From assembly GCF_054482525.1 (NCBI RefSeq), contig NZ_CM137006.1: DNA of 64,000 bases. One strand, 5' to 3'. The translations under genes were made by a program, and so were the position numbers. Below are positions 2,220 through 49,662 of this stretch, piece after piece; the stretch's first letter is position 1; every line of letters starts with the position of its first letter. A model generated the notes under the pieces. That model ran no database searches, had not been told where the DNA came from, and was given only the letters and a program-made list of their open reading frames with translations.

Positions 2220-2329
2220 TTGACAACATCTGGTACGATTCGCCCGCAGCCATCACTGACCACGGGCGAAAGTGTAAAGCAGGTGCCTTACCATCCTGAC
2301 CTGACAACCGGATATGCGGGGATTACTCC

Positions 2330-3668
2330 CATAAGCGCTAACTTAAGGGTTGAACCATCTGAAGAATGCGACGCCTCGGTGCCTCGTTAAGACGATGCCT
2401 CGCGTTCTTCAATTGCGTTTTGTAGGCTGTCAGGGATACTGTCCCACGAATGGCCACCTGTAAGCTCCAGATGACCATTTTTGTTATTCTCCACAACGAG
2501 TTAGTTCTTCTTTTCGGATCCGGCACTTCTGGGGGGGAAATCCAGCGATGGCTGGATTATGTCGTCAATTAAAAATGCGGCGAGTAGATTAGCAAATATC
2601 CACGCTTTCGCGAGTTCAGGTTCCTTTGCACGCAAAGCATCCAGGTGCAGCAAACTTTTGAGCCGCTTAAAAGCCAGTTCAATTTGCCATCGCAGACGGT
2701 AACAATCAGCCACTTGCTCTGCTGAATATTCATCTTCCGGTAATGATGTTAGCAATAGCACATGGCCCGCTGCTTCCAGCGTTTCCGCCTGAACTACTCG
2801 TCCTTTTCGACGATTCTCGCTGAGCAGTCGGGTTTTACTGATTAATGCTTTTTCGGGAGGAAGTGATACGGCAATGAGACGTGCCGGAAAGGGAGCTCCG
2901 GCTTTTTTATTACCTGAATTGCCTATCATTACAGTGGTTTCACCGTTCTTACCGCAATCCAGCCCGCGCAGAAAACCCATCATGTCAAAGCGCATTCCTT
3001 CTGCAGTTAACCAGCGCAATCCTCGCCAGTGAACCCGGACGATATAATCAGCTTCTCCAAAAGCAAGTGAGCGGATACATTCGGGACGCGAACCGAATCC
3101 CCGGTCAGCAATGCGTATCTCGTCTGCCGTTTGCGCAAATCGGTCCAGCCGTTCAGCGTCTCTGCTGTCGGTTAGCTCAAAATCAGTGAACTGACAGGTA
3201 TGAGGATCATATCCCATATGTAGTCGCCATTCAGCGCTGCCGCCCCCGGGCGCACTGATTGCTGTTCCATCGACAAGACGCAATCTCTTTCCGCTTGTAC
3301 AACCCGTAACTGCGGCGCGTACAGCAAGTGTTTGTGCGGCAAGTATGCCAAACCAGTCGGCGGCATTCCGCAGCCGCTTCAGGAGAGCCACGTCAGATAA
3401 TGTTGCAACGTCATGGAGCTGAGCCCATGCAGTGACTTCACGTAATGACATCCCCCCGGGGCCGTAAGCCAGCCCCAGACGTAGCAGAGTTGCAGCATCA
3501 CGAATTTCGCGGCGGCGGGTTAGAGCCCCGGCATTACGTGCCGAAGTATCCAGTTCTTCGGGCTTACCAATATGGGCCAGAATTGCTGACCAGTTATCGT
3601 GAGAGTAATTCATCGGCACGTTAAATCATATCAGGCGTAATACCACAACCCTTAAGTTAGCGCTTATG
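2330..3668 (-). mobile_element. IS186 (IS4 family), copy 1, 1339 bp
   Basis: Terminal inverted repeats cataagcgctaacttaagggttg (2330-2352) and its reverse complement (3646-3668); flanked by direct repeat ggattactcc (10-bp target duplication) within a GGGG-N6-CCCC hotspot. Confidence 0.92.
2501..3619 (-). CDS. insL: IS186 transposase InsL
   Basis: 372-aa ORF MPMNYSHDNWSAILAHIGKPEEL... (canonical start probably at MNYSHD, 3613); identical protein to the copy-2 ORF. Confidence 0.92.
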   Translation of the reverse strand: MPMNYSHDNWSAILAHIGKPEELDTSARNAGALTRRREIRDAATLLRLGLAYGPGGMSLREVTAWAQLHDVATLSDVALLKRLRNAADWFGILAAQTLAVRAAVTGCTSGKRLRLVDGTAISAPGGGSAEWRLHMGYDPHTCQFTDFELTDSRDAERLDRFAQTADEIRIADRGFGSRPECIRSLAFGEADYIVRVHWRGLRWLTAEGMRFDMMGFLRGLDCGKNGETTVMIGNSGNKKAGAPFPARLIAVSLPPEKALISKTRLLSENRRKGRVVQAETLEAAGHVLLLTSLPEDEYSAEQVADCYRLRWQIELAFKRLKSLLHLDALRAKEPELAKAWIFANLLAAFLIDDIIQPSLDFPPRSAGSEKKN

Positions 3669-3689
3669 GGATTACTCCCCGCACAACGG

Positions 3690-3842
3690 CTACTTCTTCG
3701 GTTCGTAAGCGAGAACAGCCTTAAACTCAATATTACGTTCCTTCACCGTAAACTCACACAGCGAGTCGCGGACCAGAAGCGTAAATCCCAGCACCGTTAA
3801 ACACAGCACTATGACTGCCACAAGGGCATATTTCGTCAGCAT
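3690..3842 (-). CDS. Hok-family type I toxin (hokE-like paralog, locus 1), 50 aa
   Basis: [50 protein letters not shown]; single TM helix plus the conserved R-D-S-L-C-E motif of Hok/Gef peptides; stop 21 bp from the IS186 end. Confidence 0.85.
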
Positions 3843-3987
3843 GTTTATATTGCCTCCATGCGAAGAAGGGACTACCATCCGAGTTGTTGAGGTTCGGAGT
3901 GGCAGCCCCAGGATTGATAGAAATATCTCCTGGGGCTTCATCTTTCCAGACCTCAGAGTAAACCTGAAACCGGAAAGCTTCAGGCAC
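3754..3987 (-). CDS. mok-like overlapping reading frame (locus 1); canonical mok ATG is shifted into the hok frame here
   Basis: 77-aa track ORF in the mok frame from a GTG at 3987; the ATG that starts Mok in locus 2 (atgaagccccag) is in frame with hok in locus 1 because of a 1-nt indel, giving the 83-aa track ORF 3690..3941. Confidence 0.4.
3885..3945 (+). ncRNA. Putative Sok-type antisense RNA (locus 1)
   Basis: Plus-strand promoter-like TTGCCT (3850-3855), 17-bp spacer, TACCAT (3873-3878), antisense to the hok/mok leader; placement by analogy to K-12 sokE/hokE spacing. Ends are approximate. Confidence 0.35.
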
Positions 3988-4181
3988 CCGCTGTTATCTT
4001 ACCCTTCCTTAGCAAAATAACTGTTTATTTATACAGCTAGTCCTGTTTCGGACTTCTGTTGGCAACACTCGTTATTGCTCGTAAAACGACATCGCCCGCA
4101 GCCATTGCTGACCGCGGGCGAAAGTGTAAAGCAGGTGCCTTACCACCCTGACCTGACAACCGGATATGCGGGGATTACTCC

Positions 4182-5520
4182 CATAAGCGCTAACTTAAGG
4201 GTTGTGGTATTACGCCTGATATGATTTAACGTGCCGATGAATTACTCTCACGATAACTGGTCAGCAATTCTGGCCCATATTGGTAAGCCCGAAGAACTGG
4301 ATACTTCGGCACGTAATGCCGGGGCTCTAACCCGCCGCCGCGAAATTCGTGATGCTGCAACTCTGCTACGTCTGGGGCTGGCTTACGGCCCCGGGGGGAT
4401 GTCATTACGTGAAGTCACTGCATGGGCTCAGCTCCATGACGTTGCAACATTATCTGACGTGGCTCTCCTGAAGCGGCTGCGGAATGCCGCCGACTGGTTT
4501 GGCATACTTGCCGCACAAACACTTGCTGTACGCGCCGCAGTTACGGGTTGTACAAGCGGAAAGAGATTGCGTCTTGTCGATGGAACAGCAATCAGTGCGC
4601 CCGGGGGCGGCAGCGCTGAATGGCGACTACATATGGGATATGATCCTCATACCTGTCAGTTCACTGATTTTGAGCTAACCGACAGCAGAGACGCTGAACG
4701 GCTGGACCGATTTGCGCAAACGGCAGACGAGATACGCATTGCTGACCGGGGATTCGGTTCGCGTCCCGAATGTATCCGCTCACTTGCTTTTGGAGAAGCT
4801 GATTATATCGTCCGGGTTCACTGGCGAGGATTGCGCTGGTTAACTGCAGAAGGAATGCGCTTTGACATGATGGGTTTTCTGCGCGGGCTGGATTGCGGTA
4901 AGAACGGTGAAACCACTGTAATGATAGGCAATTCAGGTAATAAAAAAGCCGGAGCTCCCTTTCCGGCACGTCTCATTGCCGTATCACTTCCTCCCGAAAA
5001 AGCATTAATCAGTAAAACCCGACTGCTCAGCGAGAATCGTCGAAAAGGACGAGTAGTTCAGGCGGAAACGCTGGAAGCAGCGGGCCATGTGCTATTGCTA
5101 ACATCATTACCGGAAGATGAATATTCAGCAGAGCAAGTGGCTGATTGTTACCGTCTGCGATGGCAAATTGAACTGGCTTTTAAGCGGCTCAAAAGTTTGC
5201 TGCACCTGGATGCTTTGCGTGCAAAGGAACCTGAACTCGCGAAAGCGTGGATATTTGCTAATCTACTCGCCGCATTTTTAATTGACGACATAATCCAGCC
5301 ATCGCTGGATTTCCCCCCCAGAAGTGCCGGATCCGAAAAGAAGAACTAACTCGTTGTGGAGAATAACAAAAATGGTCATCTGGAGCTTACAGGTGGCCAT
5401 TCGTGGGACAGTATCCCTGACAGCCTACAAAACGCAATTGAAGAACGCGAGGCATCGTCTTAACGAGGCACCGAGGCGTCGCATTCTTCAGATGGTTCAA
5501 CCCTTAAGTTAGCGCTTATG
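4182..5520 (+). mobile_element. IS186 (IS4 family), copy 2, 1339 bp, inverted relative to copy 1
   Basis: Same 23-bp terminal inverted repeats (4182-4204 and 5498-5520); same ggattactcc flanking duplication in a second copy of the hok 3-prime region; internal ORFs are identical to copy 1. Confidence 0.92.
4231..5349 (+). CDS. insL: IS186 transposase InsL
   Basis: 372-aa ORF identical to the 2501..3619 protein. Confidence 0.92.
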   Translation: MPMNYSHDNWSAILAHIGKPEELDTSARNAGALTRRREIRDAATLLRLGLAYGPGGMSLREVTAWAQLHDVATLSDVALLKRLRNAADWFGILAAQTLAVRAAVTGCTSGKRLRLVDGTAISAPGGGSAEWRLHMGYDPHTCQFTDFELTDSRDAERLDRFAQTADEIRIADRGFGSRPECIRSLAFGEADYIVRVHWRGLRWLTAEGMRFDMMGFLRGLDCGKNGETTVMIGNSGNKKAGAPFPARLIAVSLPPEKALISKTRLLSENRRKGRVVQAETLEAAGHVLLLTSLPEDEYSAEQVADCYRLRWQIELAFKRLKSLLHLDALRAKEPELAKAWIFANLLAAFLIDDIIQPSLDFPPRSAGSEKKN

Positions 5521-5541
5521 GGATTACTCCCCGCACAACGG

Positions 5542-5694
5542 CTACTTCTTCGGTTCGTAAGCGAGAACAGCCTTAAACTCAATATTACGTTCCTTCACCG
5601 TAAACTCACACAGCGAGTCTCCGACCAGAAGCGTAAATCCCAGCACCGTCAAACACAGCACTATGACTGCCGCAAGGGCATATTTCGTCAGCAT
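5542..5694 (-). CDS. hokE: Hok-family type I toxin HokE-like (locus 2, adjacent to ybdK), 50 aa
   Basis: [50 protein letters not shown]; position next to ybdK matches K-12 hokE; has G where locus 1 and other Hok peptides have R. Confidence 0.8.
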
Positions 5695-5794
5695 GTTTAT
5701 ATTGCCTCCATGCGAAGAAGGGACTACCATCCAAATTGTTTGGGTTTGGAGTGGCAGCCCCAGGGTTGATAGAAATATCGTCCTGGGGCTTCAT
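5606..5794 (-). CDS. Mok (modulation of killing) overlapping reading frame, locus 2
   Basis: 62-aa [65 protein letters not shown] starting upstream of hok and ending inside it in a different frame, the canonical hok/mok arrangement. Confidence 0.55.
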
Positions 5795-5797
5795 CTT
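5737..5797 (+). ncRNA. sokE: Putative Sok-type antisense RNA (sokE-like, locus 2)
   Basis: Plus-strand TTGCCT (5702-5707), 17 bp, TACCAT (5725-5730); predicted transcript is antisense to the mok start region. Ends are approximate. Confidence 0.4.
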
Positions 5798-6125
5798 TCC
5801 AGACCTCAGAGTAAACCTGAAACCGGAAAGCTTCAGGCACCCGCCGTTATCTTACCCTTCCTTAGCAAAATGGCTGTTTATTTATACAGTAAGTCCTGTT
5901 TCGGACTTCTCAATCCTCATTTGATCAACTGAAGCTGAACCCGTTTTTTTCTGCATGCCTCAATCGTCAAAATTCTTCGCCACCAGTCCGCACTGCCATA
6001 ACTTGTCATATTGCAAAATGTAGCCAATTTGCTTCAGTCACCATCATCAAAAAAAAACATTCCAGAACTTCCGCATCTCGCCCAGTCGCTCCCACTTCTA
6101 TACTGAATAGAAAACGCCAACATAA

Positions 6126-20339: not shown

Positions 20340-22576
20340 GTGGACTGGCTTCTTGATGTTTTTGCTACCTGGCTCTACGGCTTAAAAGTAATCGCGATAA
20401 CGTTAGCGGTCATCATGTTCATCAGCGGGCTGGACGATTTTTTTATTGATGTCGTCTACTGGGTACGCCGCATTAAACGCAAGTTGAGTGTTTATCGCCG
20501 CTACCCGCGAATGAGTTACCGCGAACTGTATAAACCAGATGAAAAACCGTTAGCGATTATGGTTCCGGCGTGGAATGAAACGGGCGTCATCGGCAATATG
20601 GCCGAGCTGGCGGCGACCACGCTCGACTATGAAAACTATCATATCTTTGTTGGCACCTACCCCAACGACCCCGATACTCAGCGTGATGTTGACGAAGTGT
20701 GCGCTCGCTTCCCAAACGTGCATAAGGTAGTCTGCGCGCGTCCTGGCCCCACCAGCAAAGCCGACTGCCTGAACAACGTGCTGGACGCCATCACCCAGTT
20801 TGAGCGTAGCGCCAATTTCGCATTTGCTGGTTTTATTCTGCATGACGCCGAAGATGTGATTTCACCGATGGAATTGCGTCTGTTCAACTATCTGGTCGAG
20901 CGTAAAGATCTGATTCAGATCCCGGTGTACCCATTCGAACGCGAATGGACGCACTTCACCAGCATGACTTACATTGATGAGTTTTCAGAACTGCATGGCA
21001 AAGATGTTCCGGTGCGTGAAGCCCTTGCCGGACAGGTGCCCAGCGCAGGCGTCGGCACCTGTTTCAGCCGCCGCGCCGTGACCGCACTGTTAGCTGACGG
21101 TGACGGTATTGCTTTCGACGTGCAGAGTCTTACTGAAGATTACGACATTGGTTTCCGCCTGAAAGAAAAAGGTATGACGGAAATTTTTGTCCGTTTTCCG
21201 GTGGTGGACGAAGCCAAAGAACGCGAGCAGCGTAAATTTTTACAGCACGCGCGGACGTCAAACATGATCTGCGTGCGCGAATATTTCCCCGATACCTTTT
21301 CGACTGCGGTTCGACAAAAATCTCGCTGGATCATCGGCATTGTTTTCCAGGGCTTTAAAACCCACAAATGGACCTCCAGTCTGACGCTGAACTACTTTCT
21401 CTGGCGCGACCGCAAAGGGGCAATCAGTAACTTTGTCAGCTTCCTCGCGATGCTGGTGATGATCCAGCTTTTGCTGTTGCTGGTGTATGAAAGTTTGTGG
21501 CCCGATGCCTGGCATTTCCTTTCTATTTTCAGCGGCAGCGCATGGTTAATGACTCTGCTGTGGCTAAACTTTGGCTTGATGATTAACCGCATCGTGCAGC
21601 GGGTGATTTTCGTTACTGGCTACTACGGCCTGACGCAGGGGCTGCTATCTGTCCTGCGTCTTTTCTGGGGCAACCTGATTAACTTCATGGCCAACTGGCG
21701 CGCGTTAAAACAGGTACTTCAACACGGCGATCCACGTCGCGTCGCGTGGGATAAAACAACGCATGACTTCCCCAGCGTGACTGGCGATACCCGCTCGTTG
21801 CGTCCGTTAGGTCAAATCCTGCTGGAAAATCAGGTCATCACTGAAGAACAACTCGATACAGCACTGCGTAATCGCGTCGAAGGTCTACGCCTGGGCGGTT
21901 CAATGCTGATGCAGGGGCTGATTAGCGCCGAACAGCTGGCACAGGCGCTGGCAGAGCAAAACGGCGTGGCGTGGGAATCCATCGACGCCTGGCAGATCCC
22001 GTCCTCGCTGATTGCCGAAATGCCGGCCTCCGTGGCGCTGCATTATGCAGTGCTGCCGCTGCGTCTGGAAAATGATGTGTTAATTGTCGGCAGTGAAGAT
22101 GGTATTGACCCGGTTTCGCTGGCAGCCCTGACGCGTAAAGTCGGACGCAAAGTGCGTTACGTCATTGTTCTGCGGGACAAATTGTCACGGGGTTACGTCA
22201 CTGGTATGCACGCCGACGCGGTCACGATCCGCGGGCAATGTTGTACAATGCGGTTCAGCATCAGTGGCTCACGGAACAGCAGGCCGGTGAAATCTGGCGG
22301 CAATATGTGCCGCATCAGTTCCTGTTCGCCGAAATACTGACCACGCTCGGTCATATTAATCGTTCAGCAATTAACGTGTTGTTATTGCGCCATGAACGCA
22401 GTTCTCTGCCGCTCGGCAAGTTTTTGGTCACCGAAGGCGTTATCAGCCAGGAAACGTTGGATCGCGTCCTGACAATTCAACGCGAATTACAAGTTTCGAT
22501 GCAATCACTATTACTCAAAGCAGGTTTAAACACAGAACAGGTTGCGCAACTGGAGTCCGAAAATGAAGGAGAATAA
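20340..22576 (+). pseudogene. nfrB: nfrB (phage N4 adsorption protein B, family 2 glycosyltransferase) with an apparent -1 frameshift near 22200-22240
   Basis: N-terminal 666-aa ORF (20340..22340) and C-terminal 112-aa ORF (22238..22576) are in different frames; total span is 2237 nt, not a multiple of 3; both parts read as one NfrB-like protein. Confidence 0.7.
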
Positions 22577-40722: not shown

Positions 40723-40792
40723 GCGTGAACGCCTTATCCGACCTGTGGAAACAGTGATATTTCCAGGTCGGATAATCAGCATCGCATCAGGC
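40723..40792. repeat. REP pair (BIME) downstream of purK
   Basis: gccggatgcggcgtgaacgccttatccg ... cggataatcagcatcgcatcaggc. Confidence 0.7.
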
Positions 40793-40813: not shown

Positions 40814-41707
40814 CTACAGCGAAATACAGGTCCCCGCTTCGCCCGCCAGCGTCTCTTCAATCCGCGATAACGCCCCAATCCACGCGGGTTTACCACGGCT
40901 TCTGACATAGCCACTCACCGCCATTACCTTCGGCCCCATCGAACCATCGGCTTTGGCAAATGGCGCTAAATCATCCGGTGTGGCACGGCGAATGGCGCGT
41001 TGCTGCGGCGTTCCCCAGTTTTCATATACCGCATCAGCATCGGTGAGGATCACCAGCCCATCGGCGTTAATCTGCTCAGCGAGCAACGCAGCGGCGAGAT
41101 CTTTATCAATCACCGCTTCACTCCCTGCCCCATCTTCCGTCACAGGCACACCGCCGCCGCCACTGCAAATCACCACATGCCCCTCTTTGAGCAACAACTC
41201 GATGGCTTCACTGTCGAGAATTTTACGTGGTTGCGGAGACGCCACCACCCGGCGTAAATATTTACCATCACGTTTCATCTGCCAGCCGTAAGCCGCTTCC
41301 AGTGCCTTTTGTTCTCCTGGCTGATAAACCGGACCGATAAACTTCTCTGGCTGCAAAAACGCCGGATCATCAGGCGAAACTTCAATGCGCGTCAGCACTG
41401 TCGTGACAGGCGGCATCTGCGGCTGTGCGCTCAAGCTCTGCGCCAGCATATAGCCAATCATCCCCTGGCTTTCCGCCACCAGCACATCCAGCGGATACGG
41501 TTCTACCTCTTTCCACGCCAGATTCTGTAACGCCAGCAGCCCCACCTGTGGCCCGTTGCCGTGAACAATCGCCAGCCGATAAGAACGGGCCAGGCGCGCC
41601 AGCGCGGGTACAGCACTGGCAATATTGCGATATTGATTTTCTGCCGTCAGCGCCTCACCGCGCTGGAGTAAGGCGTTGCCCCCAAGAGCCACAACCAGTG
41701 TTTTCAT
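40814..41707 (-). CDS. ybcF: Carbamate kinase-like protein YbcF
   Basis: 297-aa [23 protein letters not shown]... (amino-acid kinase fold). Confidence 0.88.
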
Positions 41708-42519
41708 GGTTTTCCTTGTAATAATTGTTGGCCAAGCCAGAACCCCAGCAGCGTATCGGCCCCTGATGTATGCCCCAGCGCCAGCAGCGAATCAATCGCA
41801 ACAGCGGTACGTTTCGGGCAACTCAGAGCATGAACAAAGTGCAGGAGTGGCGAGGCGAAATATCCTTGCGCGGCATAACGTAAATAATTAACGCTCACCG
41901 CTGTGGTAACGAGTTGAAGATTGTCGGAACAGGCAAAAAACGGGCGACCGGAGCGCGCATCTAAAGCGCCATAATACCAGGCCGCCAGCAGCATTCCGCT
42001 CAGCGTGTCATCATGACTCGGCGTTAATCCCGGACCTTTGCCCAGCCAGTGCCGCCAGTCGGTCTTCACGCCATTGAGCGTGGCCTGAAAACAGTGGCGA
42101 AACTGGCGTAATTCAGCAGGAAGCGGATCGCCTGCCGCCAACGCCAGTGGCCCGAAAAGCCCGGTTTCCTCCGCGCGTTGCATCCATGCCGCTGCAAGCG
42201 GTTGAGGATGCGCAGGCGGCGTAATACGCAGCAAACAATAACGCTGTGGCTGTTTAACCGTGAAACGCCCGAGGCGAATCCCTTGAGCCACAACCTGTGG
42301 TCGTTCATTGCCGCATAATCCACCGCATAACGCATCGAATTGCGCGCGGCGAAGCACCCATCCTCCGGGGCCGAAACCACTACCCTGACGATGCAGCGTT
42401 AACAGTTCGCCGCTTTCCGTCATCAGGTTAATCGCCCGTCGCCACACGCCCGCTAACCGCCAGGACTGGCAATAATTCGGTGCGCTACGGCTGGCAAGCA
42501 GAGGATGGATGATCGTCAT
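41704..42519 (-). CDS. ylbF: Uncharacterised protein YlbF (DUF2877)
   Basis: About 271 codons from [16 protein letters not shown]; the track ORF extends upstream to 42612. Confidence 0.8.
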
Positions 42520-42529
42520 TGCGCGTTCC

Positions 42530-43789
42530 TCAACCAATCCCCATGCTTTCAGCCAGTGCTTCCAGCGCCTGTTCAAAGCAGGCCAACGATGCCCGCACAG
42601 TGCCTGCGCCAATCTGCCCGATCCCCGCCTCTTTATGGGCGATTCCGGTATTGATGAGCGGCGTAATGCCGGTTTCTACCACGCGACGAATGTCCAGTCC
42701 CAGGCACGCGCCCTGAAAATCCCAGCCTGGGATCTGCAACTGCATATTGCGTTCAAGGTAAATTTCCGCCATCTCTTCAGATACCGCTCTGGCCGCTTCC
42801 ATGCCACCCGCACCGACAAAGCGCGTTACGCCAGGCGCTGCGATCATTGCCGCTCCGCCAATACCAAAGGTTTCGGTAATTGCGCTATCGCCCATATCCG
42901 GGTTCGCCTGCTCCTGCGAGAAGCCGGTGAAAAACAGACCTTGGGGAGTGTTTACAGGCGCAGTAAACCAGCGTTCGCCCAGCCCGCTGACCCGAATCCC
43001 GAACATATTGCCGTTGCGGGTCATTGCCGTGACGATGCTGCCTGCACGGATCATCGCACCAGCATCCATCGCCGCCTTACAGTAAGCCATCGCGAGGTTA
43101 AGGAAGAACTGATCGGTCACGCTGAGGAAATCCATCACTTCCGCGATGTGCTGTTTATCATGATCGAGGCGAGCAATTTGTGGGGCCAGCGCACGCATTA
43201 ACAGTGCTGAGGAAGCAATATTGCGTTGATGGAACTCATCGCCCATGGTAATGCCCTGCGCCATCATTGCCGTGAGATCGATACCGCGCTCCATGCGCCC
43301 CAGCGCCGCGCTTAATACTGGCATTAACACATCGCGCATCCAGCGATGGCGAGTCAGGACATCTTCGCCGTAAGCGCCAAAACGCATCACTTTGCCGATA
43401 CCTTCGTTGAGGTTGCAGTACGCCCGGTTGCCGTCGGTCACGTTCTCGACCACCAGCATCGGCATACTGGCAGAAGTAATACCGCCCATTGGCCCGACGG
43501 CATTCACATGGTGACAAGGAATGAAGTTCACTTCCCCCTGCTCCAGTATTGCCAGCGCCTGCGCTTCATCTTTCGCCCAGCCTTCGAACAGACATGCGCC
43601 CACGCACGCCCCTTTCATGGGTCCGGTCATCTCCTGCCAGCGCATTGGCGGCCCGGCGTGAAGCAGTGTTTTGCCCTCGTTTAGTTCGCTGATAAGTGAA
43701 GAAGCCGGTTGCACATCCAGCCAGTGTGGACGAGCGCGACGAATTTGTTCGATAACCGTAGCATTGGCTTGCGCCACTGATGTAAACAT
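42530..43789 (-). CDS. ylbE: YlbE (DUF1116), intact 419-aa form
   Basis: Single uninterrupted 419-aa ORF. Confidence 0.85.
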
Positions 43790-43798
43790 GGGAACCCC

Positions 43799-45466
43799 TT
43801 ATTGCAAACGTTCTAATAAACGAGCCAGTTTTTTATTGCCGCCGGCGACTGGCGACCATTGGTAATGCACAACCGGTTTGCTGGCGCTTTGTAGCTCCAG
43901 CGCAAAGCTGCGTAATCCGATGTTAATCACGGCGACGTTTTCCAGTAATGACGGTGTGTGTTGCTGAGTGGCAGGCGAAAGCGGATGAATCAGCGCCGCT
44001 GCCAGCAATGTGGCTTCCGGCAGCGAACTCACTACCGCGATCCCCGCATCTTCCAGCGTGGCGATTTGTTGCGAGCGGCATTGCGGGTCACGTTCGGTGC
44101 CTGTCACCGTGGCAATGGCGTACAGCGGTTGGCTGTCTGAACGCGCGGCACAGGCTTTTTGCCAGGCGCTCACCAGCGAGGCGGCAGGATCGGCGGTCGC
44201 GCCGAAGCCAATCACGACATCAAGTAGCAATACGCGCACTGACGGTTTAGCGCCGAGATCGGCAATTAACTGGTTGCGTAAGGTTGGGTCGATCATCGGA
44301 TGGGGACGCCCGACGGTGTAGAAATCATCGCCGAGGTCAATGATCTGGTGACCATCGGCGTCGAGCATCATACCGTGATGATGGGTATCGTCGGCTACCA
44401 TACCAAGGTGCCCGGCAAGTAATCCCGCCGCTTCGGCGGCCAGCGTACCGCCGGTATACAAGCCGCAAATAAGTCCGCTGCTGACAGGTGCTATTGCGTT
44501 ACGTCGCGCCGTAATGCGTGAAAGCAGGCAAGACAGGCGAGCGGCCTCATCCAGCGAGGAGGCAAACCAGACATTCTCGTCGCGGGCCACCGCCGGGGTA
44601 TAACCTAAAAACAGCGCCACCGTCGGTTTGCCGGTTGCTTTCATGGCATTAACAATTTTCAGACGCACAGCTTCGGCAGGTGGTTTTGAAACAAATGCCA
44701 GCACCTCGCTTTTCGCATCGGCGCTTAACATTTCCAGCGCCGTTAGCGCACTGATGCCGCCCACTTCACGGCTGAGATCGCGCCCGCCAAGACCAATCGC
44801 GTGGGTAATTCCCTCCCCTGCCAGCGCAATCTGTGAGCACAGCTCCTGAATCCCGGTACCGGAAGCGCCAATGACGCCAATGTTGCCTTCCGGCATCACG
44901 TTAGCAAAAGCCAGCGGCGTGGCGGCAATCATTGACGTACCGCAGTCCGGCCCCATCACCAGCAAGCCTTTATCGCGTGCGCGGGTTTTGAGTTGGATTT
45001 CATCTTCCAGCGTGACGTTATCGGAGAACATCATCACGTTGAGGTTGCGATCCAGCGCCTGATTCGCCAGCTCCGCCGCATATTCGCCAGCCACTGAAAT
45101 CAGCGCCAGACTGGCGTCGGGTAATTTCTGACAGGCACTGTCCCAGCGACGCACCTGCGTCAACGCCTGGCTGCTGGCTGACCCCTGCGCCAGTTGTTTT
45201 AGCGCCTCTTCAAGCTGCTGCATAATCGCCTGCGCGATCCCCGCATCCGCCGCTTCGCTACGAATTGCCACGCAAATATCGTTCGGCGTGGCGTTATTAA
45301 AATCGTCATGCCAGAAACCTGTGGTATCTAATAACGCTTTATTGGCGGGCGTACCCATCATTACGGAAACATCATCAACATTTTCTGATTCGCTGAGTTT
45401 TCGTGAAATAATCATTAAACTGACCGAATCCTGAAAACACCCTTTTTTAATAAAGGCGTGGATCAT
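43799..45466 (-). CDS. fdrA: FdrA (CoA-ligase-like / succinyl-CoA synthetase alpha-like)
   Basis: 555-aa ORF MIHAFIKKGCFQDSVSLMIISRKL... Confidence 0.88.
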   Translation of the reverse strand: MIHAFIKKGCFQDSVSLMIISRKLSESENVDDVSVMMGTPANKALLDTTGFWHDDFNNATPNDICVAIRSEAADAGIAQAIMQQLEEALKQLAQGSASSQALTQVRRWDSACQKLPDASLALISVAGEYAAELANQALDRNLNVMMFSDNVTLEDEIQLKTRARDKGLLVMGPDCGTSMIAATPLAFANVMPEGNIGVIGASGTGIQELCSQIALAGEGITHAIGLGGRDLSREVGGISALTALEMLSADAKSEVLAFVSKPPAEAVRLKIVNAMKATGKPTVALFLGYTPAVARDENVWFASSLDEAARLSCLLSRITARRNAIAPVSSGLICGLYTGGTLAAEAAGLLAGHLGMVADDTHHHGMMLDADGHQIIDLGDDFYTVGRPHPMIDPTLRNQLIADLGAKPSVRVLLLDVVIGFGATADPAASLVSAWQKACAARSDSQPLYAIATVTGTERDPQCRSQQIATLEDAGIAVVSSLPEATLLAAALIHPLSPATQQHTPSLLENVAVINIGLRSFALELQSASKPVVHYQWSPVAGGNKKLARLLERLQ

Positions 45467-45782
45467 AACAACTCCTTAAAAATTGCACCCATGGCAATTG
45501 CACGAGCAGTGTTAATGTGGCAATTACGGTATCGATGGTCGGTGACAAATAAGGTGATGAATATCACACAGAGATTATTAACAAAAGAATTCAAATAACC
45601 GCCACGCTATTACGTGTTATTTTTTAATAAGCGTGGTTGTTTTAAAAACCAGGTTAAAAGCGAGCGGATTATCAAATAAATTCTAACTATATTTTTTTGC
45701 CTGTCTGGATCACATAATCCAGATATTTTCCCTGTATGTTAATTGCAGTCATGCTTCACACCGTCGTTAAAAAGGAAGACAG

Positions 45783-46832
45783 ATGAAAATCAGTCGGGAA
45801 ACACTCCACCAGCTAATCGAGAATAAACTCTGCCAGGCTGGGTTAAAACGTGAGCACGCTGCAACCGTGGCTGAAGTATTGGTTTACGCCGATGCCAGAG
45901 GGATCCACTCTCATGGCGCGGTGCGTGTTGAATACTACGCAGAACGCATTTCAAAAGGCGGCACCAACCGTGAACCGGAATTTCGTCTTGAAGAAACCGG
46001 GCCGTGTTCGGCAATTTTACATGCCGACAATGCCGCCGGACAGGTCGCGGCGAAAATGGGTATGGAACATGCCATCAAAACCGCCCAGCAAAATGGCGTT
46101 GCGGTGGTCGGTATCAGCCGGATGGGTCACAGCGGCGCAATCTCTTATTTTGTACAGCAGGCAGCTCGCGCCGGGTTAATTGGCATTTCGATGTGCCAGT
46201 CCGATCCAATGGTGGTGCCGTTTGGCGGCGCGGAAATTTACTACGGAACTAACCCACTGGCCTTTGCCGCGCCGGGAGAAGGCGACGAGATCCTTACCTT
46301 TGATATGGCGACTACCGTACAGGCATGGGGAAAAGTGCTCGACGCCCGCTCGCGTAATATGTCTATCTCGGATACCTGGGCGGTCGATAAAAACGGAGCA
46401 CCAACAACCGATCCATTTGCAGTTAACGCCCTGCTCCCTGCCGCCGGACCGAAAGGGTATGGCCTGATGATGATGATTGACGTCCTCTCAGGCGTCTTAC
46501 TCGGCTTACCGTTCGGGCGACAGGTTAGTTCGATGTATGACGATTTACACGCCGGGCGTAATTTGGGGCAATTACATATCGTTATTAACCCGAACTTTTT
46601 CTCCTCCAGCGAACTATTCCGTCAACATCTTAGCCAGACCATGCGCGAATTAAATGCCATAACCCCCGCGCCCGGTTTTAACCAGGTTTATTATCCCGGA
46701 CAGGATCAGGATATTAAACAACGCAAAGCCGCCGTCGAAGGCATCGAAATTGTTGATGATATTTACCAGTATTTAATTTCCGACGCGCTTTATAACACGT
46801 CATACGAAACGAAAAATCCCTTTGCGCAATAA
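45783..46832 (+). CDS. allD: Ureidoglycolate dehydrogenase AllD
   Basis: 349-aa ORF, Ldh_2 family. Confidence 0.9.
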   Translation: MKISRETLHQLIENKLCQAGLKREHAATVAEVLVYADARGIHSHGAVRVEYYAERISKGGTNREPEFRLEETGPCSAILHADNAAGQVAAKMGMEHAIKTAQQNGVAVVGISRMGHSGAISYFVQQAARAGLIGISMCQSDPMVVPFGGAEIYYGTNPLAFAAPGEGDEILTFDMATTVQAWGKVLDARSRNMSISDTWAVDKNGAPTTDPFAVNALLPAAGPKGYGLMMMIDVLSGVLLGLPFGRQVSSMYDDLHAGRNLGQLHIVINPNFFSSSELFRQHLSQTMRELNAITPAPGFNQVYYPGQDQDIKQRKAAVEGIEIVDDIYQYLISDALYNTSYETKNPFAQ

Positions 46833-47155
46833 TTATTGAGACAGGACTTTCTTATGATTACACATTTTCGTCAAGCCATAGAAGAAACGCTGCCCTGGCT
46901 TTCCTCTTTTGGCGCTGACCCAACGGGTGGGATGACCCGTTTACTTTATTCGCCGGAATGGCTGGAAACTCAGCAGCAATTTAAAAAAAGAATGGCAGCA
47001 AGCGGGCTGGAAACACGTTTCGATGAAGTGGGGAATTTATATGGTCGCCTGAGTGGCACCGAATATCCACAAGAAGTGGTTCTGAGCGGTTCGCATATCG
47101 GGTGATGCTGCCAACTTACTGATTTAGTGTATGATGGTGTTTTTGAGGTGCTCCA

Positions 47156-47431
47156 GTGGCTTCTGTTTCTATCAGCTGTCCCTCCTGTTCAGCTACTGAC
47201 GGGGTGGTGCGTAACGGCAAAAGCACCGCCGGACATCAGCGCTATCTCTGCTCTCACTGCCGTAAAACATGGCAACTGCAGTTCACTTACACCGCTTCTC
47301 AACCCGGTACGCACCAGAAAATCATTGATATGGCCATGAATGGCGTTGGATGCCGGGCAACTGCCCGCATTATGGGCGTTGGCCTCAACACGATTTTACG
47401 TCACTTAAAAAACTCAGGCCGCAGTCGGTAA
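47156..47431 (+). CDS. insA: IS1 protein InsA
   Basis: 91-aa [43 protein letters not shown]... Confidence 0.93.
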
Positions 47432-47853
47432 CCTCGCGCATACAGCCGGGCAGTGACGTCATCGTCTGCGCGGAAATGGACGAACAGTGGGGCTATGTCG
47501 GGGCTAAATCGCGCCAGCGCTGGCTGTTTTACGCGTATGACAGTCTCCGGAAGACGGTTGTTGCGCACGTATTCGGTGAACGCACTATGGCGACGCTGGG
47601 GCGTCTTATGAGCCTGCTGTCACCCTTTGACGTGGTGATATGGATGACGGATGGCTGGCCGCTGTATGAATCCCGCCTGAAGGGAAAGCTGCACGTAATC
47701 AGCAAGCGATATACGCAGCGAATTGAGCGGCATAACCTGAATCTGAGGCAGCACCTGGCACGGCTGGGACGGAAGTCGCTGTCGTTCTCAAAATCGGTGG
47801 AGCTGCATGACAAAGTCATCGGGCATTATCTGAACATAAAACACTATCAATAA
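47350..47853 (+). CDS. insB: IS1 InsB reading frame (expressed as InsAB-prime by -1 frameshifting)
   Basis: 167-aa ORF in the -1 frame overlapping the insA 3-prime end. Confidence 0.88.
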
Positions 47854-48876
47854 GTTGGAGTCATTACCCGCATATCGATACCGTGGTTAACGGCGGTAAC
47901 CTCGACGGGCAATTCGGCGCGCTGGCGGCGTGGCTGGCAATTGACTGGTTGAAAACGCAATACGGCGCGCCGTTACGTACGGTCGAAGTGGTGGCGATGG
48001 CAGAAGAAGAAGGCAGCCGCTTCCCGTATGTCTTCTGGGGCAGTAAAAATATCTTTGGGCTGGCGAATCCTGACGACGTGCGGAATATCTGTGATGCCAA
48101 AGGAAATAGTTTTGTCGATGCGATGAAGGCTTGCGGATTTACTCTGCCGAACGCCCCACTAACTCCGCGTCAGGATATTAAAGCCTTTGTCGAACTGCAT
48201 ATCGAACAGGGCTGTGTGCTGGAAAGTAATGGGCAGTCAATTGGCGTGGTGAATGCAATTGTCGGGCAGCGTCGTTATACGGTGACGCTGAATGGCGAAT
48301 CAAACCATGCAGGCACCACGCCGATGGGTTATCGTCGTGATACGGTTTACGCTTTCAGTCGCATTTGCCATCAGTCGATCGAAAAAGCGAAAAAGATGGG
48401 CGACCCGCTGGTGCTGACCTTTGGCAAGGTGGAGCCGCGCCCGAATACGGTGAATGTGGTACCGGGTAAAACCACGTTCACCATTGATTGTCGTCATACC
48501 AACGCTGCCGTGCTGCGCGATTTCACCCAGCAGTTAGAAAACGACATGCGGGCGATTTGCGATGAAATGGACATTGGTATTGATATCGATTTATGGATGG
48601 ACGAAGAACCCGTGCCGATGAATAAGGACCTGGTCGCCACCCTGACAGAATTGTGTGAAAGAGAAAAACTGAATTACCGGGTGATGCACAGTGGTGCCGG
48701 GCACGACGCGCAAATTTTCGCGCCTCGCGTACCAACCTGCATGATTTTTATCCCCAGCATCAACGGGATCAGCCATAACCCGGCGGAACGCACCAATATT
48801 ACCGACCTTGCCGAAGGGGTCAAAACGTTGGCACTCATGCTTTATCAACTTGCCTGGCAGAAATAAGGAGTCATAA

Positions 48877-49662
48877 ATGGGATATTTAAATAACGTCACC
48901 GGTTACCGCGATGATTTACTGGCTAACCGTGCGATTGTTAAACACGGTAATTTCGCACTGTTAACCCCGGATGGTCTGGTAAAAAATATTATTCCGGGCT
49001 TTGAAAATTGTGACGCGACAATCCTCTCCACGCCAAAGCTGGGGGCCTCTTTTGTTGATTATCTGGTCACACTGCATCAAAACGGTGGCAACCAACAGGG
49101 CTTCGGTGGCGAAGGCATTGAAACGTTCCTGTATGTGATCTCTGGAAATATCACTGCCAAAGCCGAAGGCAAAACATTTGCCTTAAGCGAAGGTGGCTAT
49201 CTTTATTGCCCACCAGGCTCCTTAATGACGTTTGTTAACGCCCAGGCCGAAGACAGCCAAATCTTTTTATATAAGCGCCGCTATGTTCCGGTAGAAGGCC
49301 ATGCACCGTGGCTGGTTTCTGGCAATGCCAGCGAACTGGAACGCATTCACTATGAAGGTATGGATGATGTGATCCTGCTGGATTTTCTGCCCAAAGAGTT
49401 AGGTTTTGATATGAACATGCATATCCTCTCTTTTGCACCAGGTGCCAGCCACGGTTATATCGAAACACACGTCCAGGAACACGGTGCCTATATTCTTTCC
49501 GGTCAGGGGGTTTATAACCTCGACAATAACTGGATCCCGGTGAAAAAAGGCGATTACATCTTTATGGGCGCTTATTCTTTACAGGCTGGTTATGGCGTAG
49601 GGCGTGGTGAAGCGTTCAGCTATATTTACTCGAAAGATTGCAACCGCGACGTAGAGATTTAA
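48877..49662 (+). CDS. allE: (S)-ureidoglycine aminohydrolase AllE (YlbA), cupin
   Basis: 261-aa ORF MGYLNNVTGYRDDLLANRAIVKHGNF... Confidence 0.88.
   Translation: MGYLNNVTGYRDDLLANRAIVKHGNFALLTPDGLVKNIIPGFENCDATILSTPKLGASFVDYLVTLHQNGGNQQGFGGEGIETFLYVISGNITAKAEGKTFALSEGGYLYCPPGSLMTFVNAQAEDSQIFLYKRRYVPVEGHAPWLVSGNASELERIHYEGMDDVILLDFLPKELGFDMNMHILSFAPGASHGYIETHVQEHGAYILSGQGVYNLDNNWIPVKKGDYIFMGAYSLQAGYGVGRGEAFSYIYSKDCNRDVEI

Follow-up and report, generated by a model that had tools for sequence, protein, structure and literature searches.

Intact allG (ylbE) within a complete allFGHK gene set of an Escherichia coli strain close to PCN033, with allC of the same strain interrupted by IS1

The closest described system to the locus analysed here is the oxamic transcarbamylase of Escherichia coli K-12. 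Genetic and biochemical work (Kim & Kim 2024, PMC11326118) identified ylbE as allG, whose product the AllF-AllG-AllH oxamic transcarbamylase requires as a subunit; the gene shares a transcript with the carbamate kinase gene allK (Kim & Kim 2022, 2024). Deletion of allF, allG or allH in K-12 MG1655 abolished the formation of oxamate from allantoin and redirected the flux to oxalate, and in a triple mutant oxamate was fully recovered only when allFGH were supplied together (PMC11326118). The purified His-tagged AllF-AllG-AllH proteins interconvert oxamate plus carbamoyl phosphate and oxalurate plus Pi, with Km values of 1.3 mM (carbamoyl phosphate) and 36.9 mM (oxamate); crude lysates from overproducing cells were most active at about pH 9, and their activity was saturated at 10 mM Mg2+ (PMC11326118). 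Genomic DNA of MG1655 was the source of the cloned genes, allG being listed at 1260 bp and 419 aa, and for the catalytic site of AllFGH the authors give docking alone (PMC11326118). RT-PCR placed fdrA-ylbE-ylbF-ybcF on one transcript in MG1655, and YbcF (AllK) acts as the catabolic carbamate kinase, generating ATP from carbamoyl phosphate (PMC9843812). The allF operon is induced by allantoin in anaerobiosis via AllS and ArcA (PMC12535856). In the pathway that these studies outline, AllG is one of three obligatory subunits of a Mg2+-dependent oxamic transcarbamylase, AllFGH phosphorolyses oxalurate, giving oxamate and carbamoyl phosphate, during anaerobic allantoin breakdown, and AllK uses the carbamoyl phosphate together with ADP to yield ATP, CO2 and NH3.

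How does the present locus compare? The window, by which we mean the whole 64-kb stretch of DNA analysed, carries ylbE as one ATG-to-TGA open reading frame, with the ATG at 43787-43789, the TGA at 42530-42532 and zero internal stops in either the ORF listing or the raw sequence (Table 1). The description of ylbE as a single intact 419-codon ORF, given in a preliminary description of this DNA, is therefore borne out. The product matches Pfam PF06545 with 326.7 bits (E=7.9e-98) over profile positions 1-215 of 215, against a curated gathering score of 27 bits that serves as the family cut-off. This family, formerly DUF1116, is now named 'Oxamate carbamoyltransferase subunit AllG'. The ORF is a genuine gene, not a reading frame that arose by chance. 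Of 5426 complete E. coli genomes, 5420 contain ylbE, and full-length homologues of about 419 aa abound in Enterobacterales and Orbales (7997 clusters or more at E<=1e-10). In E. coli an intact ylbE/allG is the usual state; the gene's role in the long-sought oxamic transcarbamylase was published in 2024 and is already recorded in Pfam.

Table 1. Coordinates of the allFGHK operon, the neighbouring allDCE genes and associated features in the window
Feature	Position	Strand	Description
ylbE = allG	42530..43789	-	intact, 419 codons; encodes AllG, a subunit of oxamate carbamoyltransferase (OXTCase)
fdrA = allF	43799..45466	-	555 aa, intact; succinyl-CoA-synthetase-alpha-like OXTCase subunit
ylbF = allH	41704..42519	-	intact, 271 aa counted from the ATG at 42519; third subunit of OXTCase
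ybcF = allK	40814..41707	-	297 aa, intact; catabolic carbamate kinase
allD-fdrA intergenic region	45467..45782	.	316 bp; divergent; holds promoter/regulator region of the allF operon
G5 homopolymer (C5 on + strand)	43534..43538	-	ylbE nt 252-256; site of the legacy 'frameshift'
allD	45783..46832	+	ureidoglycolate dehydrogenase, 349 aa, intact; makes oxalurate, the OXTCase substrate
allC 5' fragment	46854..47100	+	about 82 codons, cut by IS1; collinearity break relative to MG1655 and PCN033
IS1	47101..47868	+	768 bp in allC; terminal inverted repeats; Pfam InsA and IS1 DDE domains
allC 3' part	47869..48866	+	Pfam Peptidase_M20; otherwise undamaged
allE (ylbA)	48877..49662	+	ureidoglycine aminohydrolase, 261 aa; downstream of IS1, allDCE operon

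The other three members of the gene set are in the same state. fdrA contains the Pfam CoA_binding and Ligase_CoA domains, scores 1032 bits with the NCBIfam FdrA model and matches PDB 3DMY at E=2.9e-298; it equals its MG1655 counterpart in length, with 16 aa differences. ylbF matches Pfam PF11392 (AllH) at E=4.4e-29 and differs from MG1655 at 5 aa with length unchanged; a 302-aa version of this ORF arises only by extension to an upstream TTG, into ylbE. ybcF scores 614.6 bits with the carbamate kinase model NCBIfam NF006926 and has the MG1655 length with 7 aa differences. All three are stop-free at full MG1655 length, so the earlier statement that fdrA, ylbF and ybcF lie intact alongside ylbE was correct. 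The suggestion that the strain may keep a complete module also holds at the level of reading frames, yet this is the default state of the species, as the near-universal occurrence of ylbE indicates. The four genes follow one another in the order fdrA-ylbE-ylbF-ybcF, close-packed on the minus strand and divergent from allD, and their spacings (9 nt between fdrA and ylbE, 10 nt between ylbE and ylbF and a 4-nt overlap of ylbF and ybcF) are equal to those of MG1655. Operon order, intercistronic spacing and the divergent allD neighbour are therefore shared with that strain.

The allD-fdrA intergenic region is identical to that of E. coli PCN033, and its MG1655 equivalent has the same length with about 20 substitutions. 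A 9-bp block at 45538-45546 is swapped relative to MG1655, reading GTCACCGAC in place of ACTCGTTGT on the fdrA strand, and at 45603-45616 a cluster of substitutions forms a small hairpin, CACGTAATAGCGTG, that MG1655 does not have. Both changes are common to PCN033 and fall in the region reported to hold the AllS/ArcA sites of the allF promoter. A scan of the operon for promoter and terminator consensus sequences gave counts at or below the shuffled expectation. At the other end, ybcF and purK converge, and at 40745-40777 the space between them falls about 77 bp short of that in MG1655: an unaligned stretch of 33 nt in the window faces 110 nt in MG1655 (21370-21479 of the compared MG1655 locus). 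The ybcF-purK distance in PCN033 equals that in the window. The extra MG1655 stretch may be a repeat element specific to K-12.

Aligned with ylbE of MG1655, the comparison that had been proposed as a check, with an identical and intact MG1655 gene as the outcome that would have counted against the earlier reading, the window gene faces a counterpart that is intact but not identical. In the current reference, NC_000913.3, ylbE (b4572) is annotated as an intact CDS at 548357..549616 (1260 bp, 419 codons). The two genes differ by 27 nt substitutions and 0 indels (97.86% identity), and the proteins share 416 of 419 residues without gaps (99.3%; MG1655 YlbE is YP_009029994.1), the window having T11, G355 and S401 where MG1655 has A, S and P. 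The assertion that ylbE is frameshifted in MG1655 accordingly describes superseded and other legacy K-12 records, not NC_000913.3.

Where does the frameshift come from? The W3110 record NC_007779.1 annotates ylbE as a 1259 bp pseudogene, 'frameshifted', at 547581-548839. When the first 300 nt are aligned, W3110 has GGGG where the third MG1655 version and the window have GGGGG at nt 252-256, and A where they have G at nt 114. With GGGGG and G114 the window does not carry the legacy pseudogene allele. The legacy K-12 allele, found in W3110 and formerly split into ylbE_1 and ylbE_2 in the old MG1655 reference, is the same gene at the same position and otherwise near-identical. Deletion of one G in silico, from the window or from the third MG1655 version, yields a frame ending ...QGK-stop after codon 86. 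A 60-nt probe carrying the four-G run found a 100% match in only 4 of 5416 matching records, namely W3110, CIT, LIM and CAR, the last three being records of about 4.6 Mb in which the match lies at W3110's own coordinate, 547802. In NZ_CP032667.1 and every other listed genome the probe's match was 61 nt long with 98.4% identity, the value that five Gs would give. The CIT record (NZ_CP026028.1; 4,639,673 bp) also annotates ylbE as 'frameshifted' at 547581-548839, and these coordinates, identical to those of W3110, suggest that a legacy sequence was inherited, without independent confirmation of the lesion. The probe result and the W3110 and CIT annotations together mark the frameshift as belonging to a handful of K-12 records, legacy or reference-derived. 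Resequencing against the old MG1655 reference yielded two reported differences in ylbE (PMC4404585, PMC4759930, PMC2973815, PMC5979011), listed as 547694 A>G in 'ylbE_1' (PMC2973815), as 547694 A>G together with 547831 A>AG (PMC5979011), and as a 'ylbE+ allele' abolishing a stop codon (PMC4759930); in NCM3722 the change was said to have 'restored an intact ancestral gene' (PMC3045373). The two differences listed in these papers are exactly those that separate W3110 from the third MG1655 version. The four-G run was presumably fixed by the update from U00096.2 to U00096.3. In short, the 'MG1655 frameshift' is a one-G difference of legacy K-12 records only, absent from the current MG1655 reference and from E. 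coli generally.

The source strain is nevertheless not MG1655. The all/pur region of the window is 95.7-98.2% identical to MG1655, and the 27 substitutions in ylbE, the 95.7% identity of fdrA, an IS1 insertion in allC and a match of 99.8-100% to PCN033 all distinguish the strain. The intactness of ylbE contributes nothing to this identification, because five Gs are found in the window, in the third MG1655 version and in essentially all complete E. coli genomes; the original conclusion was right about the strain and wrong about the reason. Against E. coli PCN033 (NZ_CP006632.1) the window is 99.83-100% identical and collinear over 64 kb, bar three IS insertions. The PCN033 YlbE protein (WP_000495417.1) is 100% identical to that of the window and its DNA 99.9%. 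PCN033 has neither the IS1 in allC nor two IS4-family insertions that lie beside tandem hokE copies in the window. A Shigella origin, suggested by the roughly 97% identity to most E. coli and by the IS1, was rejected in view of this 99.8-100% agreement with PCN033.

At the protein level the window AllG retains every column that is invariant over 32 aligned sequences, including the Enterococcus faecalis protein of PDB 3CLQ; examples are C92-H93, D184-E185-H187-R189-N190, D301-S302, H385 and G394-A395-G396. Among the near-invariant columns the sole exception is Ser401 (codon 42587-42589), where 30 of 32 homologues, the E. faecalis protein among them, have Pro. This substitution could alter AllG activity. 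PCN033 AllG also has Ser401, and the residue is therefore a lineage polymorphism rather than a fresh or private lesion. Eleven complete genomes carry DNA at least 99% identical to the window ylbE, so the allele may have spread beyond PCN033. Given the full length of the protein, its 99.3% identity to MG1655 AllG, its complete set of invariant residues, the 3CLQ fold and the operon architecture, we infer that it has the same activity as MG1655 AllG. Two kinds of composite protein were seen among the database entries: in the single-contig entries P0002 and P0024 (548 and 485 aa) AllG and an AllH domain form one fused protein, and in P0004 and P0005 AllG is joined to a TPP-enzyme N-terminal domain. 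Both may be artefacts of assembly or gene calling.

AllG matches one solved structure, PDB 3CLQ (E=6.7e-111), a 'conserved protein of unknown function' of E. faecalis V583 from structural genomics that belongs to the AllG family, and by this sequence match AllG has its fold. FdrA matches its own crystal structure, 3DMY, and a solved relative of YlbF was sought and none found. The classical transcarbamylases (ATCase PyrB, OTCase ArgI/ArgF and YgeW) carry out the same type of reaction, a reversible carbamoyl transfer between phosphate and an amino or amide nitrogen (PMC11326118). Unlike them, AllG lacks a sequence or fold relationship to that group, the enzyme needs three gene products, and FdrA resembles the alpha chain of succinyl-CoA synthetase (SCS). 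OTCace_N and OTCace domains were absent: at E<=10 Pfam gives only PF06545 for AllG and only PF11392 for AllH, and at the default Pfam cut-off FdrA has CoA_binding and Ligase_CoA only.

MG1655 and PCN033 both have an intact allC, which encodes allantoate amidohydrolase, whereas in the window this gene is broken by an IS1 flanked by a 9-bp target duplication, CGCATATCG, at 47092-47100 and 47869-47877. The 3' part is 98.2% identical to MG1655 and 99.99% to PCN033, and the position of allE agrees with both. The IS1 may be polar on allE (48877-49662). The exact allC::IS1 junction of the window was absent from all 5426 complete genomes, three '100% covered' matches each consisting of two separated pieces. 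A separate case was observed in ETEC4091 (NZ_CP122617.1), where an independent IS1 lies in allC 143 bp from the window site (2405-4417 of the compared locus) and allC is annotated as two fragments; with this second, independent insertion, allC seems to be hit repeatedly by IS1 in E. coli. In the pathway, allC supplies the route to ureidoglycolate and oxalurate, and the IS1 would block the step that makes ureidoglycine. The intact allFGHK genes are consequently probably cut off from oxalurate derived from allantoin, and in this strain they are probably starved of that substrate. Intact reading frames need not mean a working pathway when an insertion cuts the supply upstream: that the module is complete is true, that the source strain has a working pathway is doubtful.

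What, then, does an intact ylbE signify here? We hold with high confidence that the window gene is an ordinary intact allele, the second gene of an allF-allG-allH-allK operon that encodes the AllG subunit of OXTCase. The opposing idea that intactness is a strain marker, setting this DNA apart from an MG1655 in which the gene is a frameshifted pseudogene, draws on a lesion that does exist, since W3110 NC_007779.1 carries it, and on an older literature in which the name 'ylbE_1' is used and ylbE is counted among the lesions of the MG1655 reference (PMC2973815, PMC4759930, PMC3045373). It runs, however, into the 419 intact codons of NC_000913.3, into the independently sequenced MG1655 genome NZ_CP032667.1, whose 61-nt match at 98.4% is that of a five-G run, and into the confinement of the four-G allele to four K-12-type records. 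Moreover, MG1655 served as the functional wild type in the allG genetics and as the source of the active cloned gene, and cloning at 419 aa with activity is therefore independent functional proof that MG1655 ylbE is intact. We regard the marker reading as almost certainly wrong, and the frameshift as unsuitable for telling strains apart: the W3110 RefSeq record keeps it and the current MG1655 reference does not have it. A mechanistic proposal fares hardly better. AllG might be a beta-like partner of the SCS-alpha-like FdrA, the two forming a split heterodimer with phosphorolysis at the alpha/beta interface; FdrA, with its CoA_binding and Ligase_CoA domains, does match SCS alpha chains weakly (E=1e-10 to 1e-5), and we infer a formal resemblance between phosphorolysis of an acyl-type bond and SCS site I. 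Yet Pfam at E<=10 offers AllG no match besides PF06545, and a search of the PDB with the 32-sequence AllG profile found 3CLQ alone, so that the AllG fold has no other relative among solved structures. In neither search was similarity to SCS beta, ATP-grasp or Ligase_CoA domains detected for AllG; homology of its fold to SCS beta is unsupported, and we think it very improbable that the proposal is right.

The broken allC raises two further possibilities about why the ordinary intact allele persists. One is that decay simply lags behind: with allC lost, allFGHK would be a stranded, idle remnant on its way to pseudogenisation. The insertion at about codon 82 of allC has a clean 9-bp duplication, which marks it as a simple and probably recent event; the near-identical PCN033 retains an intact allC, the strain has acquired three or more IS copies that PCN033 lacks, and ETEC4091 shows that IS1 entered allC independently 143 bp away. 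Against this, neither allD nor any of the four module ORFs is shortened or contains a stop, and AllG matches its counterpart in PCN033, where allC is intact, at 100% identity, so that relaxed selection has left no sign so far. In addition, the absence of the exact junction from the 5426 complete genomes ties the insertion to the strain rather than to a trend of its lineage. We therefore view a stranded remnant as conceivable, though on balance doubtful. We give very little credence to the other possibility, in which OXTCase and the carbamate kinase serve a purpose other than allantoin breakdown and the lineage-specific P401S change in AllG is adaptive rather than neutral. If true, such a role might be, for example, the use of oxalurate, ureidoglycolate or oxamate in the gut, or operation in the direction that consumes carbamoyl phosphate.

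The two remaining insertions relative to PCN033 lie in window 2240-5910 and are 1337-bp elements of the IS4 family (IS186-like), at 2331-3667 (-) and 4183-5519 (+). Each encodes a 372-aa DDE_Tnp_1 transposase, and the copies are 99.7% identical to one another. Three ORFs of 372 aa at first suggested three IS copies, but only two of them are transposases; the third is ybdK (GCS2), and its length is a coincidence. The two tandem hokE toxin loci each have one element on their downstream side; the elements are in opposite orientations, and both are inserted at the same GGGATTACTCCC site with a 12-bp duplication, inside GGGG-N6-CCCC. PCN033 has both hokE copies with zero IS elements there. The pair looks like two independent, site-specific insertions on paralogous targets.
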